Shown here piece by piece: positions 481-13,600 of a stretch of DNA of 14,337 nucleotides. How positions within the stretch are numbered: position 1 is the first letter of the stretch; each line of letters begins with the position of its first letter. A program made the translations under genes and the position numbers. The notes below the pieces were generated by a model. It saw only the letters and a program-made list of their open reading frames with translations, ran no database searches and had not been told where the DNA came from. The stretch comes from a virus. The DNA is taken from UHGV virus genome UHGV-1848636; one strand, written 5' to 3'.

Positions 481-487
481 GGGTCCT
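481..487 (+). promoter_or_regulatory. cosQ: Putative cosQ (packaging termination element), GGGTCCT
   Basis: GGGTCCT lies about 24 bp upstream of the cohesive-end sequence, matching the position and (from memory) the sequence of lambda cosQ. Exact boundaries are uncertain. Confidence 0.5.
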
Positions 488-510
488 TTCCGGCGATCCG
501 GCAGGCTACG

Positions 511-522
511 GGGCGGCGACCT
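511..522 (+). other. cosN: cosN: 12-nt cohesive-end sequence GGGCGGCGACCT where terminase nicks
   Basis: Exact match to the lambda 12-nt cohesive end, followed by CGCGGGTTTTCGCTATTTATGAAAATTTTCCGG as at the lambda left end. The nick sites flank this segment. Confidence 0.9.
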
Positions 523-553
523 CGCGGGTTTTCGCTATTTATGAAAATTTTCC

Positions 554-690
554 GGGGAAAATCATGTCGGTACTTCTCGAACATAACTATTTGTTTTTTC
601 TAATATCGAATCCGTAAAAGGTCCGACATGAAAACGCCTAAAAAAGTCATTTTCGGGCACTTTCATGTCGGCCCCTGTATTTATTGTGAG
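554..690 (+). promoter_or_regulatory. cosB: cosB-like terminase small-subunit binding region, not lambda-type, with three copies of TCATGTCGG (direct, inverted, direct)
   Basis: Motif TCATGTCGG at 562-570 (+), its reverse complement CCGACATGA at 623-631, and TCATGTCGG again at 663-671. An AT-rich spacer (about 575-620) sits between the first two copies. The region lies between cosN and the Nu1 start, as lambda R3-I1-R2-R1 does, but the sequence is not the lambda cosB I recall. Confidence 0.6.
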
Positions 691-698
691 ACTGTTTC

Positions 699-1218
699 AT
701 GAAGGTTAATAAAAAGAAACTTGCCGAAATTTTCAACGTGGATCCGCGAACGATTGAACGCTGGCAGTCTCAGGGACTCCCTTGTGTCTCCGGAGGTGGT
801 AAGGGCGTTGAATCTGTATTTGATACCGCCATGGCAATTCAGTGGTATGCGCAGAGGGAAGCTGATATCGAAAATGAAAAACTCCGTAAAGAGGTTGAGG
901 ATTACAGGGCTGCCAGTGAGGCAGATCTCCAGCCTGGGACTATTGAGTACGAACGCCATCGACTTACGCGTGCGCAGGCCGACGCACAGGAGCTGAAGAA
1001 TGCCAGAGACTCCGCAGAGGTGGTGGAAACCGCATTCTGTACTTTCGTGCTGTCACGGATCGCAGGTGAAATTGCCAGTATTCTTGACGGGATCCCTCTC
1101 TCGGTACAGCGGCGTTTTCCGGAACTGGAAAACCGACATGTTGATTTCCTGAAACGGGATATCATCAAAGCCATGAACAAAGCAGCCGCGCTGGATGAAC
1201 TGATACCGGGGTTGCTGA

Positions 1219-1244
<26 letters not shown>
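699..1244 (+). CDS. nu1: Terminase small subunit (Nu1), 181 aa; N-terminal winged-HTH DNA-binding domain diverged from lambda, C-terminal part lambda-like
   Basis: ATG at 699, 181 aa as in lambda Nu1, first gene after cos. Residues from about 70 onward ([58 protein letters not shown]...) match lambda Nu1 as I recall it; residues 1-70 are only partly similar. Confidence 0.93.
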
Positions 1245-4925
<3,681 letters not shown>

Positions 4926-7672: not shown

Positions 7673-7698
7673 TGGCCCTTCGGGGCCATTTTCTCTCT
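7673..7698 (+). terminator. Stem-loop with UUCG tetraloop and U-rich tail directly after the E stop codon
   Basis: TGGCCC (7673-7678) pairs with GGGCCA (7683-7688) across loop TTCG, followed by TTTTCTCTCT. It lies between E and the FI ribosome-binding site GGAGGAG (7701-7707). Confidence 0.4.
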
Positions 7699-7710
7699 GT
7701 GGAGGAGTTC

Positions 7711-8097
7711 ATGACGAAAGATGAACTGATTGCCCGTCTTCAGGAGCTGGGTGAGCAACTGAACCGTGATGTCAGCCTGACGGGAACGAAAGAAGAACTG
7801 GCGCTCCGTGTGGCAGAGCTGGAAGAGGAGCTTGATGACACTGCCGATCAGGATACCCCTATCAGCCCGGAAAATGCGCTGACCGGACATGAAAATGAGG
7901 TTGTATCAGCGCAGCCGGATACCGTGACTGATACGGCTGATCTGGTCACGGTTGTGGCACTGGTGACGCTGCATACTGATGCACTTCACGCCACGCGGGA
8001 TGACACTGTGGCATTTGTGCTGCCGGGAACGGCGTTCCGTGTCTCTGCCGGTGTGGCAGCCGAAATGACAGAACGCGGCCTGGCCAGAATGCAATAA
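7711..8097 (+). CDS. FI: gpFI, DNA-packaging accessory protein, 128 aa
   Basis: ATG at 7711 preceded by GGAGGAG; MTKDELIARLQELGEQLNRDVSLTGTKEELALRVAELEEEL... matches lambda gpFI. The upstream extension to 7672 in the ORF track overlaps the hairpin and lacks an RBS. Confidence 0.88.
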   Translation: MTKDELIARLQELGEQLNRDVSLTGTKEELALRVAELEEELDDTADQDTPISPENALTGHENEVVSAQPDTVTDTADLVTVVALVTLHTDALHATRDDTVAFVLPGTAFRVSAGVAAEMTERGLARMQ

Positions 8098-8108: not shown

Positions 8109-8462
8109 GTGGCTGATTTCGATAACCTGTTCGATGCTGCCATTGCCCGCGCCGATGAAACGATACGCGGGTACATGGGAACGTCAGCCACCATGACATC
8201 CGGTGAGCAGTCCGGCGCAGTAATACGTGGTGTTTTTGATGACCCTGAAAATATCAGCTATGCCGGACAGGGCGTGCGCGTTGAAGGCTCCAGCCCGTCC
8301 CTGTTTGTCCGGACTGATGATGTGCGGCAGCTGCGGCGCGGCGACACGCTGAGCATCGGTGAGGAAAACTTCTGGATAGACCGGGTTTCGCCGGATGATG
8401 GTGGAAGCTGTCATCTCTGGCTTGGGCGGGGCGTACCGCCTGCCGTTAACCGTCGCCGCTGA
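8109..8462 (+). CDS. FII: gpFII head completion / head-tail connector protein, 117 aa
   Basis: GTG start at 8109 preceded by GGAGG (8099-8103); (M)ADFDNLFDAAIARADETIRGYMG... matches lambda gpFII in length and sequence. Confidence 0.9.
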   Translation: MADFDNLFDAAIARADETIRGYMGTSATMTSGEQSGAVIRGVFDDPENISYAGQGVRVEGSSPSLFVRTDDVRQLRRGDTLSIGEENFWIDRVSPDDGGSCHLWLGRGVPPAVNRRR

Positions 8463-8473
8463 AAGGGGGATGT

Positions 8474-9052
8474 ATGGCCATAAAAGGTCTTGAGCAGGCC
8501 GTTGAAAACCTCAGCCGTATCAGCAGAACGGCGGTGCCCGGTGCCGCCGCAATGGCCATTAACCGCGTTGCTTCATCCGCGATATCGCAGTCGGCGTCAC
8601 AGGTTGCCCGTGAGACAAAGGTACGCCGGAAACTGGTAAAGGAAAGGGCCAGGCTGAAAAGGGCCACGGTCAAAAATCCGCAGGCCAGAATCAAGGTTAA
8701 CCGGGGGGATTTGCCCGTAATCAAGCTGGGGAATGCGCGGGTTGTCCTGTCCCGCCGCAGGCGTCGTAAAAAGGGGCAGCGTTCATCCCTGAAAGGTGGC
8801 GGCAGCGTGCTTGTGGTGGGAAACCGTCGTATTCCCGGCGCGTTTATTCAGCAACTGAAAAATGGCCGGTGGCATGTTATGCAGCGTGTGGCCGGGAAAA
8901 ACCGTTACCCCATTGATGTAGTGAAAATCCCGATGGCGGTGCCGCTGACCACGGCGTTTAAACAGAATATTGAACGGATACGGCGTGAACGTCTTCCGAA
9001 AGAGCTGGGCTATGCGCTGCAGCATCAACTGAGAATGGTAATAAAGCGATGA
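8474..9052 (+). CDS. Z: Tail completion protein gpZ, 192 aa
   Basis: 192-aa ORF preceded by AGGGGGA, in the lambda gpZ position with matching length and sequence. Confidence 0.9.
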   Translation: MAIKGLEQAVENLSRISRTAVPGAAAMAINRVASSAISQSASQVARETKVRRKLVKERARLKRATVKNPQARIKVNRGDLPVIKLGNARVVLSRRRRRKKGQRSSLKGGGSVLVVGNRRIPGAFIQQLKNGRWHVMQRVAGKNRYPIDVVKIPMAVPLTTAFKQNIERIRRERLPKELGYALQHQLRMVIKR

Positions 9053-9444
9053 AACATACTGAACTCCGTGCAGCCGTACTGGATGCACTGGAGAAGCATG
9101 ACACCGGGGCGACGCTTTTTGATGGTCGCCCCGCTGTTTTTGATGAGGAAGATTTTCCGGCAATTGCCGTTTATCTCACCGGCGCTGAATACACGGGCGA
9201 AGAGCTGGACAGCGATACCTGGCAGGCGGAGCTGCATATTGAAGTTTTCCTGCCTGCTCAGGTGCCGGATTCAGAGCTGGATTCGTGGATGGAGTCCCGG
9301 ATTTATCCGGTGATGAGCGATATCCCGGCACTGTCAGATTTGATCACCAGTATGGTGGCCAGTGGCTATGACTACCGGCGCGACGATGATGCGGGCCTGT
9401 GGAGTTCAGCCGATCTGACTTATGTCATTACCTATGAAATGTGA
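9049..9444 (+). CDS. U: Tail terminator protein gpU, 131 aa
   Basis: 131-aa [34 protein letters not shown]... matches lambda gpU. Its ATG overlaps the Z stop (ATGA). Confidence 0.92.
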
Positions 9445-9451
9445 GGACGCT

Positions 9452-10192
9452 ATGCCTGTACCAAATCCTACAATGCCGGTGAAAGGTGCCGGGACCACCC
9501 TGTGGGTTTATAAGGGGAGCGGTGACCCTTATGCGAACCCGCTTTCAGACGTTGACTGGTCGCGTCTGGCAAAAGTTAAAGACCTGACGCCCGGCGAACT
9601 GACCGCTGAGTCCTATGACGACAGCTATCTCGATGATGAAGATGCAGACTGGACTGCGACCGGGCAGGGGCAGAAATCTGCCGGAGATACCAGCTTCACG
9701 CTGGCGTGGATGCCCGGAGAGCAGGGGCAGCAGGCGCTGCTGGCGTGGTTTAATGAAGGTGATACCCGTGCCTATAAAATCCGCTTCCCGAACGGCACGG
9801 TCGATGTGTTCCGTGGCTGGGTCAGCAGTATCGGTAAGGCGGTGACGGCGAAGGAAGTGATTACCCGCACGGTGAAGGTCACCAATGTGGGACGTCCGTC
9901 GATGGCAGAAGATCGCAGCACGGTGACGGCGACAACCGGCATGACGGTGACACCCGCCAGTGCTTCCGTAGTGAAAGGGCAGAGCACCACGCTGACCGTG
10001 GCATTCCAGCCGGAGGGCGCAACCGACAAGAGCTTCCGTGCGGTGTCTGCGGATAAAACAAAAGCCACCGTGTCGGTCAGTGGTATGACCATCACCGTGA
10101 AAGGTGTTGCTGCAGGCAAGGTCAACATTCCGGTCGTATCCGGTAATGGTGAGTTTGCTGCGGTTGCAGAAATCAACGTCACCGCCAGTTAA
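9452..10192 (+). CDS. V: Major tail tube protein gpV, 246 aa, with C-terminal Ig-like (Big_2-type) domain
   Basis: ATG at 9452 preceded by GAGGA; [31 protein letters not shown]... matches lambda gpV. The C-terminal ~90 residues ([33 protein letters not shown]...VTAS) are Thr/Val-rich beta-strand sequence typical of a Big_2 domain. Confidence 0.93.
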
Positions 10193-10207
10193 TCCGGAGA
10201 GTCAGCG

Positions 10208-10630
10208 ATGTTCCTGAAAACCGAATCATTTGAACATAACGGTGTGACCGTCACGCTTTCTGAACTGTCAGCCCTGCAGCGTATTGAGCATCTCGCCCTG
10301 ATGAAACGGCAGGCAGAACAGGCGGAGTCAGACAGCAACCGGAAGTTTACTGTGGAAGACGCCATCAGAACCGGCGCGTTTCTGGTGGCGATGTCCCTGT
10401 GGCATAACCATCCGAAGAAGACAAAGCTGCCTTCCATGAATGAAGCCGTTAAACAGATTGAGCAGGAAGTGCTTACCACCTGGCCCACAGAGGCAATTTC
10501 TCATGCTGAAAACGTGGTGTACCGGCTGTCCGGTATGTATGAGTTTGTGGTGAATGATGCCCCTGAACAGGCAGAGGACGCCGGGCCTGCAGAGCCTGTT
10601 TCTGCGGGAAAGTGTTCGACGGTGAGCTGA
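10208..10630 (+). CDS. G: Tail assembly chaperone gpG, 140 aa (zero-frame product)
   Basis: 140-aa ORF MFLKTESFEHNGVTVTLSELSALQRIEHL... matches lambda gpG. It contains the slippery heptamer GGGAAAG 18 nt before its stop. Confidence 0.92.
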   Translation: MFLKTESFEHNGVTVTLSELSALQRIEHLALMKRQAEQAESDSNRKFTVEDAIRTGAFLVAMSLWHNHPKKTKLPSMNEAVKQIEQEVLTTWPTEAISHAENVVYRLSGMYEFVVNDAPEQAEDAGPAEPVSAGKCSTVS

Positions 10631-11046
10631 GTTTTGCCCTGAAACTGGCGCGCGAGATGGGGCGACCCGACTGGCGTGCCATGCTTGCCGGGATGTCATC
10701 CACGGAGTATGCCGACTGGCACCGCTTTTACAGTACCCATTATTTTCATGATGTTCTGCTGGATATGCACTTTTCCGGGCTGACGTACACCGTACTCAGC
10801 CTGTTTTTCAGCGATCCGGATATGCATCCGCTGGATTTCAGTCTGCTGAACCGGCGCGAGGCTGACGAAGAGCCTGAAGATGTTGTGCTGATGCAGAAAG
10901 CGGCAGGGCTTGCCGGAGGTGTCCGCTTTGGCCCGGACGGGAATGAAGTTATCCCCGCTTCCCCGGATGTGGCGGACATGACGGAGGATGACGTAATGCT
11001 GATGACAGTATCAGAAGGGATCGCAGGAGGAGTCCGGTATGGCTGA
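10208..11046 (+). CDS. G-T: gpGT tail assembly chaperone fusion made by -1 programmed ribosomal frameshift (join 10208..10612, 10612..11046)
   Basis: Slippery site G_GGA_AAG at 10606-10612 is in the G frame. The -1 frame is open from that point to 11046 (T segment, VFDGELSFALKLAREMGRPDW...) and has no ATG or RBS of its own. The arrangement is the same as lambda G/GT. Confidence 0.85.
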
Positions 11047-13600
11047 ACCGGTAGGCGATCTGGTCGTTGATTTGAGTCTGGATGAGGCCAGATTTGACGA
11101 GCAGATGGCCAGAGTCAGGCGTCATTTTTCCGGTACGGAAAGTGATGCGAAAAAAACAGCGGCAGTCGTTGAACAGTCAATGAACCGGCAGGCGCTGGCT
11201 GCACAGAAAGCGGGGATTTCCGTCGGACAGTATAAAGCCGCCATGCGTATGCTTCCTGCACAGTTCACCGACGTGGCCACGCAGCTTGCAGGCGGGCAAA
11301 GTCCGTGGCTGATCCTGCTGCAACAGGGGGGGCAGGTTAAGGACTCCTTCGGCGGGATGATCCCCATGTTCAGGGGGCTTGCCGGTGCGATCACCCTGCC
11401 GATGGTCGGGGCCACCTCGCTAGCGGTGGCGACCGGTGCGCTGGCGTATGCCTGGTATCAGGGCAACTCAACCCTGTCCGATTTCAACAAAACGCTGGTC
11501 CTTTCCGGCAATCAGTCGGGTCTGACGGCAGATCGCATGCTGGTCCTGTCCAGAGCCGGGCAGGCGGCAGGGCTGACGTTTAACCAGACCAGCGAGTCAC
11601 TCAGCGCACTGGTTAAGGCGGGAGTAAGCGGTGAGGCTCAGATTGCATCCATCAGCCAGAGTGTGGCGCGTTTCTCCTCTGCATCCGGCGTGGAGGTGGA
11701 CAAGGTCGCTGAAGCCTTCGGGAAGCTGACCACAGACCCGACGTCAGGGCTGACAGCGATGGCACGCCAGTTCCATAACGTGACGGCGGAGCAGATTGCG
11801 TATGTTGCTCAGTTGCAGCGTTCCGGCGATGAAGCCGGGGCATTGCAGGCGGCGAACGAGGCCGCGACGAAAGGGTTTGATGACCAGACCCGCCGCCTGA
11901 AAGAGAACATGGGTACGCTGGAGACCTGGGCAGACAGGACAGTGCGGGCATTCAAATCCATGTGGGATGCGGTGCTGGATATTGGTCGTCCTGATACCGC
12001 GCAGGAGATGCTGATTAAGGCAGAGGCTGCGTTTAAGAAAGCGGACGACATCTGGAGTCTGCGCAAGGATGATTATTTTGTTAACGATGAAGCGCGGGCG
12101 CGTTACTGGGATGATCGTGAAAAGGCCCGTCTTGCGCTTGAAGCCGCGAGAAAGAAGGCTGAACAGCAGAGTCAACAGGACAAAAATGCGCAGCAGCAGA
12201 GCGATACTGAAGCGTCACGGCTGAAATATACCGAAGAGGCGCAGAAGGCTTACGAACGGCTGCAGACGCCGCTGGAGAAATATACCGCCCGTCAGGAAGA
12301 ACTGAACAAGGCACTGAAGGACGGGAAAATTCTGCAGGCAGATTACAACACGCTGATGGCGGCGGCGAAAAAGGACTATGAAGCGACGCTGAAAAAGCCG
12401 AAACAGTCCGGCGTGAAGGTGTCTGCGGGCGATCGTCAGGAAGACAGTGCTCATGCTGCCCTGCTGACGCTTCAGGCTGAACTCCGGACGCTGGAGAAGC
12501 ATGCCGGAGCAAATGAGAAAATCAGCCAGCAGCGCCGGGATTTGTGGAAGGCGGAAAATCAGTTCGCGGTACTGGAGGAGGCGGCACAACGTCGCCAGCT
12601 ATCCGCACAGGAGAAATCCCTGCTGGCGCATAAAGATGAGACGCTGGAGTACAAACGCCAGCTGGCTGCACTTGGCGATAAGGTCACGTATCAGGAGCAC
12701 CTGAACGCGCTGGCGCAGCAGGCGGATAAATTCGCACAGCAGCAACGGGCAAAACGGGCCGCCATTGAGGCGAAAAACCGGGGGCTGACTGACCGGCAGG
12801 CAGCGCGGGAAGCCACGGAACAGCGTCTGAAGGAACAGTATGGCGATAATCCGCTGGCGCTGAATAACGTCATGTCAGAGCAGAAAAAGACCTGGGCGGC
12901 TGAAGACCAGCTTCGCGGGAGCTGGATGGCAGGCCTCAAGTCCGGCTGGAGTGAGTGGGAAGAGAGCGCCACGGACAGTATGTCGCAGGTTAAAAGTGCA
13001 GCCACGCAGACCTTTGATGGTATTGCACAGAATATGGCGGCGATGCTGACCGGCAGTGAACAGAACTGGCGCAGCTTCACCCGCTCCGTGCTGTCCATGA
13101 TGACAGAAATTCTGCTTAAGCAGGCAATGGTGGGGATTGTCGGGAGTATCGGCAGCGCCATTGGCGGTGCTACCGGTGGCGGCGCATCAGCGTCAGGCGG
13201 TACAGCCATTCAGGCAGCTGCGGCGAAATTCCATTTTGCGACCGGAGGATTTACGGGAACCGGCGGCAAATATGAGCCAGCGGGGATTGTTCACCGTGGT
13301 GAGTTTGTCTTCACGAAGGAGGCAACCAGCCGGATTGGCGTGGGGAATCTCTACCGGCTGATGCGCGGCTATGCCACCGGTGGTTATGTCGGTACACCGG
13401 GCAGTCTGGCTGACAGCCGGTCGCAGGCGTCCGGGACGTTTGAGCAGAATAACCATGTGGTGATTAACAACGACGGCACGAACGGGCAGATAGGTCCGGC
13501 TGCTCTGAAGGCGGTGTATGACATGGCCCGCAAGGGTGCCCGTGATGAAATTCAGACACAGATGCGTGATGGTGGCCTGTTCTCCGGAGGTGGACGATGA
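11039..13600 (+). CDS. H: Tail tape measure protein gpH, 853 aa
   Basis: 853-aa ORF, the lambda gpH length, preceded by AGGAGG (11026-11031) and overlapping the T end by 8 nt. It has a charged, Ala/Gln/Lys-rich central region and a Gly-rich C-terminal segment (GSIGSAIGGATGGGASASGG...). Confidence 0.95.
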   Translation: MAEPVGDLVVDLSLDEARFDEQMARVRRHFSGTESDAKKTAAVVEQSMNRQALAAQKAGISVGQYKAAMRMLPAQFTDVATQLAGGQSPWLILLQQGGQVKDSFGGMIPMFRGLAGAITLPMVGATSLAVATGALAYAWYQGNSTLSDFNKTLVLSGNQSGLTADRMLVLSRAGQAAGLTFNQTSESLSALVKAGVSGEAQIASISQSVARFSSASGVEVDKVAEAFGKLTTDPTSGLTAMARQFHNVTAEQIAYVAQLQRSGDEAGALQAANEAATKGFDDQTRRLKENMGTLETWADRTVRAFKSMWDAVLDIGRPDTAQEMLIKAEAAFKKADDIWSLRKDDYFVNDEARARYWDDREKARLALEAARKKAEQQSQQDKNAQQQSDTEASRLKYTEEAQKAYERLQTPLEKYTARQEELNKALKDGKILQADYNTLMAAAKKDYEATLKKPKQSGVKVSAGDRQEDSAHAALLTLQAELRTLEKHAGANEKISQQRRDLWKAENQFAVLEEAAQRRQLSAQEKSLLAHKDETLEYKRQLAALGDKVTYQEHLNALAQQADKFAQQQRAKRAAIEAKNRGLTDRQAAREATEQRLKEQYGDNPLALNNVMSEQKKTWAAEDQLRGSWMAGLKSGWSEWEESATDSMSQVKSAATQTFDGIAQNMAAMLTGSEQNWRSFTRSVLSMMTEILLKQAMVGIVGSIGSAIGGATGGGASASGGTAIQAAAAKFHFATGGFTGTGGKYEPAGIVHRGEFVFTKEATSRIGVGNLYRLMRGYATGGYVGTPGSLADSRSQASGTFEQNNHVVINNDGTNGQIGPAALKAVYDMARKGARDEIQTQMRDGGLFSGGGR

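Follow-up and report, generated by a model that had tools for sequence, protein, structure and literature searches.

A lambda-like Escherichia coli prophage with a putative phage 21-class recognition cassette joined within nu1 to a lambda-type terminase

Introduction

The notion that the small terminase subunit (TerS) of a lambda-like phage can be divided between two parents is not a new one, and the hybrid architecture in question has been known for about 40 years from genetic crosses. Crosses of the two laboratory phages lambda and 21 gave rise to hy51 (Frackman, Siegele & Feiss 1985, J Mol Biol 183:225), in which, according to two later accounts (PMC4669245; PMC9026076), cosB of phage 21 and the 5' half of gene 1 are fused to the 3' half of Nu1, and which is viable, 21-specific and works with the large terminase subunit (TerL) of lambda. 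PMC4669245 also puts the 21 segment of hy51 at about 600 bp, and ascribes the discrimination between lambda and 21 to TerS residues 20 and 24 together with base pairs 56 and 59 of the R3 element of cosB. Packaging termination, on the other hand, is independent of cosB specificity (PMC4669245). At the other end of the protein, the C-terminal region of Nu1 is described as the TerL-binding domain (PMC9026076), and the title of Wu et al. 1988, as cited in PMC4669245, refers to protein-protein interaction domains at the N and C termini of TerL. Lambdoid mosaics arise for the most part through homology-driven recombination, which can proceed between diverged substrates (PMC3945230), and TerS-encoding Gram-negative PICIs have been recognized as a class (PMC6092414).

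Our literature search found no paper describing a natural chimera of the hy51 kind, from which we take it that such a chimera has not been described previously; a search on Escherichia phage IdasGreatGrand or PDB 7LWR, both of which figure below, returned nothing relevant. The chimera considered here lies in a stretch of viral DNA of 14,337 nucleotides (hereafter the window), in which an initial annotation had proposed a mosaic junction inside nu1. This prophage very probably has a recognition cassette of the phage 21 class, composed of cosB and nu1 codons 1 to ~60-70, in company with a remainder of nu1, a TerL and a head that are all lambda-type. Judged from its sequence, the packaging specificity of the allele would be 21-like, and the allele itself would be a natural counterpart of the Feiss laboratory hybrid hy51, with a shorter 21-type segment.

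Sequences and Comparisons

The window was aligned with lambda (PV340536), phage 21 (OL657228) and IdasGreatGrand, with identity determined per 100 nt, and the elements of cosB were placed by mapping the annotations of phage 21 (OL657228, M81255) onto it. Sites were considered informative when lambda and 21 differ and the window equals one of them, and synonymous and non-synonymous differences were counted by the method of Nei and Gojobori. The survey of Nu1 homologues comprised 227 proteins, drawn from the top 120 matches of each of two protein searches. The chimera was counted as present where at least 80% of window positions 500-1300 were covered. The Pfam family Phage_Nu1 (PF07471) has a gathering cut-off of 30.

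Results

The window contains the late region of a lambda-like E. coli prophage, with nu1 directly 3' of cos, its end overlapping the start of A, and the lambda head and tail genes following through H and M (Table 1). The 181-residue Nu1 matched the Phage_Nu1 profile at 302.6 bits and along its full length (residues 1-164 on profile positions 1-164 of 164), and the N-terminal peptide quoted in the initial annotation was indeed the translation of this gene. An ORF of 92 aa on the opposite strand (681-959) lies entirely within nu1 and cosB and was taken as spurious. A prophage of E. coli DCE7 (NZ_CP090611.1), whose early region is Qin/DicB-like and whose late region is lambda-like, differs from the window by 1 base. 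Upstream of cosQ, positions 1-450 had no megablast match to lambda and in the DCE7 record hold a gene for a TonB-family protein and a DUF3950 gene; IdasGreatGrand differs from the window across these same positions, suggesting that the right chromosome end is another exchangeable module. From gene Z through most of H (~8448-13350), lambda, 21 and the window are near-identical, with short dips, e.g., in V. Two patches are less lambda-like, one in the FI gene region (7685-7950, identity to lambda down to 84-91%) and the other in the 3' part of V (9848-10047, 89-90%), and both would represent further mosaic boundaries in the window.

Table 1. Features of the cos-nu1-A region, with identities to lambda and phage 21 (nucleotide identities or matching positions)
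Feature	Position	Strand	Lambda	Phage 21	Remarks
cosQ/R4-like element GGGTCCTTTCC	483-494	+			By alignment; conserved with lambda and 21
cosN 12-nt cohesive end GGGCGGCGACCT	511-522	+			Same in lambda and 21
cosN and I2	511-555		100%	91%	
I2	540-554	+	15/15		Ends the conserved stretch to the left of the swapped block
cosB	556-698		52-54%	80%	
cosB R3 AATCATGTCGGTACTT	560-575	+		15/16	21-type
cosB I1 (IHF site)	584-596	+		12/13	Per OL657228 annotation
cosB R2	618-633	-		16/16	Inverted relative to R3 and R1; per OL657228 annotation
cosB R1	661-677	+		15/17	21-type
nu1	699-1244	+			181-codon ORF, translated
nu1 codons 1 to ~59	699-874	+	62%	93%	21-type winged helix-turn-helix; 97% to island L006
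nu1 5' part	699-874 / 699-890		61-62%	93% (699-874)	
Junction zone, codons ~60-72	875-914	+			Mixed parental signals; nine window-unique sites
Junction zone	875-914 / 891-914		60-62%	68% (875-914)	
nu1 codons 73-181	915-1244	+			Lambda-type linker, self-association region, TerL-binding C-terminus
nu1 after the junction	915-1000		95%	71%	
nu1 after the junction, to the start of A	915-1218		96%		
Gene A (TerL)	1219-3144	+			Lambda-type; gpA ATPase and nuclease domains (Pfam); 5' end overlapped by nu1
Most of A through head genes			94-100%		

Identity across cosB and nu1 was far from uniform. In the sliding comparison, the stretch from 561 to 908 was 53-62% identical to lambda and 77-93% to phage 21, and from 909 on the relationship was inverted in a sharp step, with 92-100% to lambda and, up to gene Z, 40-75% to phage 21. 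Phage 21 matched the window over 540-903 with 86.6% nucleotide identity by blastn, and lambda had no match to the same interval at megablast sensitivity. The step was equally apparent in the protein, which is 60% identical to lambda Nu1 over residues 1-68 and 98% over residues 76-181, bearing out the initial description of the first ~70 residues as only partly lambda-like and of the remainder, along with the downstream genes, as near-identical to lambda. The divergent block had also been claimed to include cosB, and it was found to extend leftward over all of cosB and to stop at ~555, at the conserved cosN and I2.

The informative sites (21:lambda) numbered 119:24 up to position 910 and 2:42 from 914 on, so that the best breakpoint falls at 910-914 (Fisher p ~3e-22, uncorrected for the scanning of breakpoints), which makes the end coordinate of 910 first given for the block very nearly exact. 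Synonymous differences per site between the window and lambda were 0.87 (i.e., saturated) for codons 1-64 and 0.19 for codons 73-150, and those between the window and 21 were 0.20 and 0.63, respectively. This flip in synonymous divergence at the breakpoint identifies recombination rather than fast protein evolution as the cause, and the two halves of nu1 thus have separate histories. Protein-DNA recognition pairs can co-evolve, and the Nu1 homologues surveyed vary most in their N-terminal region, so it could be supposed that no recombination occurred and that rapid co-evolution of the protein and its site carried the N-terminal domain and cosB away from lambda in situ. Such a history is very improbable, however, and we consider it refuted both by the synonymous asymmetry and by the presence of the block elsewhere with different flanks; the nucleotide identity of the block to phage 21 (given above) and to island L006 (96-97%, see below) and the abruptness of the change, which is completed within ~40 nt, also count against it. 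With so abrupt a transition at codons ~60-72, the breakpoint inside nu1 that had been proposed to swap the cosB-recognition domain together with its target stood up to the comparison. The block spans exactly cosB and the winged helix-turn-helix, and elsewhere is joined to other C-terminal halves, both of which are in line with the swap as originally read. The donor type, which was left unnamed at that stage, appears to be a variant of the phage 21 packaging-specificity class.

The junction tract itself (875-914) is only 60-70% identical to each of lambda, 21 and island L006. Its being unlike all three candidate parents implies either that there was no clean crossover between two parents or that the true parents are unsampled, and it is possible that the tract came from a third, unsampled parent or that the junction was reworked. 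An AF2 model of Nu1 (mean pLDDT 77.5) has a strand at residues 2-4, a helix at 5-11, the recognition helix at 16-24, a wing, a strand at 40-42, a long helix at 43-74, a loop at 75-81 and then more helices, and in this model the junction would lie at the C-terminal end of helix 43-74, just past the DNA-binding domain. The 23-mer across the junction (891-913) had no exact match in the GTDB species-representative genomes, and was present in 55 IMG/VR contigs, every one of them this same chimera with window-type left flanks and lambda-type right flanks. What seemed to be a second IMG/VR group, with ~86% left-flank identity, was rejected, as it arose where sequences had been compared without gaps over a 1-bp indel in cosB.

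Among sequenced E. coli the allele is common: the chimera was present in 540 of 5,426 complete genomes. The cassette on its own (545-885) was found at ≥95% identity in ~553 E. coli records, and at 80-90% identity, the range of the true 21-type (e.g., Nissle 1917), in 815. A prophage of O157:H7 carries the chimera with 1 amino-acid difference, and IdasGreatGrand, a phage record from swamp mud, is 98.9% identical over 481-1300. That a single junction sequence occurs in all of the contigs and loci inspected suggests one spreading lineage and not repeated events. The same observations bear on whether the junction could be an artefact, either an assembly chimera or contamination by a laboratory lambda-21 hybrid, given that laboratory hybrids of such an architecture exist (PMC4669245). 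An artefact is close to inconceivable, since the junction recurs in the complete E. coli genomes from many sources, in the IMG/VR contigs and in the swamp-mud phage, and since the 21-type part is ~87% identical to 21 and the lambda part 95-98% to lambda, from which it follows that the chimera was not built from the laboratory strains; this combination of prevalence and divergence from both laboratory phages in our view refutes it. In one copy of the chimera (IMGVR_UViG_2531839584_000011, 12050-12090 of its locus), ACGGGGCGGAAGGCGCGCGGG replaces ACGGGGCGGCGACCTCGCGGG at the expected cosN, which may reflect a damaged cos or an assembly artefact.

The cassette resembles phage 21 both in the elements of cosB and in the recognition helix. 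The order R3-I1-R2-R1 with an inverted R2 matches the 21 architecture, the R-box cores (CATGTCGG) are of the 21 type, and bp 56 and 59 of R3 (window positions 566 and 569) are both G, as in 21, and not T and C as in lambda. In record M81255 of phage 21, R4 is annotated as CGGGTCCTTTCC. As for the protein, the recognition helix (Nu1 residues 16-26) is identical to that of 21, including E20 and S24, where lambda has Q20 and E24, and the N-terminal 56 residues are ~88% identical to gp1 of phage 21. Structures matched by phmmer were 7lwr_A (residues 1-54), 1j9i_A (1-68) and 6hn7_B (1-98), the first of which equals residues 1-54 of phage 21 gp1 in sequence and agrees with the window Nu1 at 50 of its 54 positions.

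Counting against a simple 21 identity, the cassette agrees with phage 21 at only 80% of positions in cosB and 93% in the 5' part of nu1. In the wing, residues 30-37 read VSGGGKGV in the window and ASKGSKGI in 21, a difference at four of eight positions that gives the window a lambda-like GGGKG motif; bp 54 of R3 is A where 21 has G; and R1 differs at two of its 17 positions. With the wing, R1 and the spacers all differing from 21, the specificity could conceivably be shifted or broadened. Taken further, these differences, along with the overall divergence of cosB and the separate identity cluster that the cassette forms in E. coli (at ≥95% as opposed to 80-90%, see above), would suit a specificity distinct from both lambda and 21, i.e., a further class alongside the N15 type. 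We regard such a class as improbable in view of the 21-type recognition helix, R-box cores and both discriminating base pairs, whose role is set out in PMC4669245. The A-run that separates I1 from R2 (614-618) differs in length by 1 bp between copies of the cassette that are identical in other respects; the window has GTAAAAGG, phage 21 and roughly half of the 55 IMG/VR copies have GTAAAGG, and the spacing of R3 and R2 is accordingly not fixed.

Past the junction, Nu1 is that of lambda in all but a few residues, with only L132I and G181D over residues 76-181 and G181D alone in the last 40. It is here that the likeness to phage 21 ends, as the C-terminal 106 residues are 50% identical to gp1 and lambda-type, and TerL and the head genes are likewise lambda-type (40-75% nucleotide identity to 21). 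The gpA differs from that of lambda at 8 residues, 7 of which fall within residues 8-37. The juxtaposition of a lambda-type C-terminus and a lambda-type TerL points to a TerS-TerL pairing of the lambda type, and the intactness of the allele in hundreds of prophages and in IdasGreatGrand offers indirect support for that interaction. A small patch at the start of gpA (window 1239-1330, including Nu1 residue 181) is 87% identical to lambda at the nucleotide level, with 97-100% on both sides. The patch was found at ≥95% identity in 473 E. coli records, and among the examples listed it adjoins genes annotated as "terminase small subunit" and not as "DNA-packaging protein", from which it seems to travel with the chimera; it may be compensatory or it may be hitch-hiking.

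The homologues surveyed revealed that nu1 has been divided in other ways as well, with junctions recurring at two conserved stretches, residues ~57-72 and 92-101. The N-domain of the window type occurs with the full 21-type remainder (P0123, plausibly a parental lineage), with a third kind of C-half that follows a further junction near residue 101 (P0111), and with a fourth kind in a protein of 194 residues (P0120), and lambda-type C-halves in turn follow N-domains of other types (P0004, P0007, P0011, P0020). Four further database proteins named "terminase small subunit" that have this N-domain type (P0005, P0140, P0142, P0144) are frameshifted or have unrelated sequence after ~residue 145, which looks like prophage decay or insertions in nu1. 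No reciprocal chimera, with a lambda N-domain and a 21 C-half, was present among the 227 homologues, weak evidence given that these were the top 120 matches per search. Such promiscuity raises the matter of direction, i.e., whether the combination of 21-type cassette and lambda-type C-half is the older one and lambda or phage 21 the recombinant. Lambda-type C-halves are joined to several other N-domains and 21-type N-domains to at least four kinds of C-half (21-type, lambda-type and those of P0111 and P0120), both of which would accommodate this reversed history, and there is no outgroup that polarises the event. The one shared junction sequence, however, fits a single and relatively recent origin of the chimera, and although nothing here is decisive, we hold the reversed order to be unlikely, if well worth keeping in mind.

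Outside the chimeric lineage, the nearest relative of the cassette that we found is in a small PICI-like island of a Logan contig (SRR30814273), L006 (positions 3780-4585), where the nucleotide identity to window 556-874 is 96-97%. The L006 island adjoins clpS/clpA, encodes a D5-like primase, an SSB, a lambda E-like capsid protein, a D-like decoration protein, a 137-aa Nu3-like ORF and a 194-aa TerS, and has a cosQ-like element, cosN and R3-I1-R2-R1 that are all intact. A second island, L067, adjoins phoQP and shares its capsid, decoration and TerS genes with L006; ahead of them stand int, alpA, an AAA_25 replication gene, SSB and PerC. A further locus of this kind is L068. No TerL gene lies within the L006 or L067 loci. 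Sister islands such as L067 have a true 21-type DNA-binding domain, a variant cosN (GGGCGTCGACCT) and variant R cores (CATGTCAG, CATGTCGT). The TerS of these E. coli islands is 193-194 aa long, and L006 shares cosQ, cosN, cosB and the N-domain with the window; unlike the window, the island proteins have a 21-like linker and a C-half of their own (54% identical to lambda).

Discussion

The features of the locus are those of a natural counterpart of hy51. As in that hybrid, a 21-type cosB and the helix-turn-helix-encoding 5' part of the small terminase gene run in frame into a 3' part of the lambda nu1 type, next to a TerL of the lambda type. The window's 21-type segment is the shorter of the two, ending ~400 bp from the cohesive end at codons ~60-72, as compared with the length given for hy51 in PMC4669245, and unlike that of hy51 it is only ~87% identical to phage 21, natural and widespread. 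With phage 21 itself (gp1 and cosB of OL657228 and M81255; PDB 7LWR), the locus shares its recognition helix, the arrangement of cosB and the R-box cores. Its lambda side is seen in Nu1 from residue 76 on (compare PDB 1J9I and 6HN7), in the identical cosQ, cosN and I2 and in a gpA with so few differences, and it departs from lambda in cosB (52-54%), in the DNA-binding domain (60%) and in having E20/S24 for Q20/E24.

In operation, the chimeric TerS would recognise the R sequences of the 21 type while IHF occupies I1, and its lambda-type C-terminus would hold the lambda-type TerL and present it to the shared cosN for nicking. The outcome would be a packaging specificity that is 21-like and not lambda, served by packaging and head proteins of the lambda type. 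For this, hy51 provides a working example of the same architecture (PMC4669245; PMC9026076). As to its origin, two lambda-like genomes resident in the same cell could have undergone homology-driven exchange in the conserved stretch ...WYA..R....IENEKLR of nu1, the left flank from cosQ through cosN to I2 being common to both parental types and the second boundary being set by terminase when it cuts cos. A single crossover in nu1 would be enough, given that the cassette stands at the extreme left end of the chromosome, that cosQ, cosN and I2 are shared and that packaging termination is independent of cosB type (PMC4669245). The DNA-binding domain and its target would travel together, we propose, for the reason that either alone would be non-functional. 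One such event, whose product then spread, would account for the chimera.

A bolder reading can be constructed around the island, namely that the cassette is a separate specificity variant, marked by the GGGKG wing and the altered R1 and spacers, that is shared with the PICI-like island (96-97% nucleotide identity) and has been exchanged between helper phages and their satellites, the gpA patch being compensatory. We attach little probability to it. Were it true, one crossover in nu1 would let a phage escape its satellites, or a satellite retarget the TerL of its helper, and the N-terminal changes in gpA would be a compensatory adaptation of the TerS-TerL interface.

As we read it, the chimera is an instance of the mosaicism usual in phages, here at a domain boundary already known, and calls for no new mechanism. 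It parallels the classic result that cosB binding and TerL binding reside in separable N- and C-terminal parts of the small terminase, and narrows the swap that is tolerated in nature to the ~60-70 N-terminal codons plus cosB. Its abundance suggests that, among E. coli prophages, those of O157:H7 included, a sizeable share of the lambda-type terminase and head modules recognise a 21-type cos and not that of lambda, a difference in specificity that is hidden by the current annotation of "terminase small subunit". This bears on any prediction of which prophages, cosmids, satellites and defective elements may be cross-packaged or transduced by a given helper.
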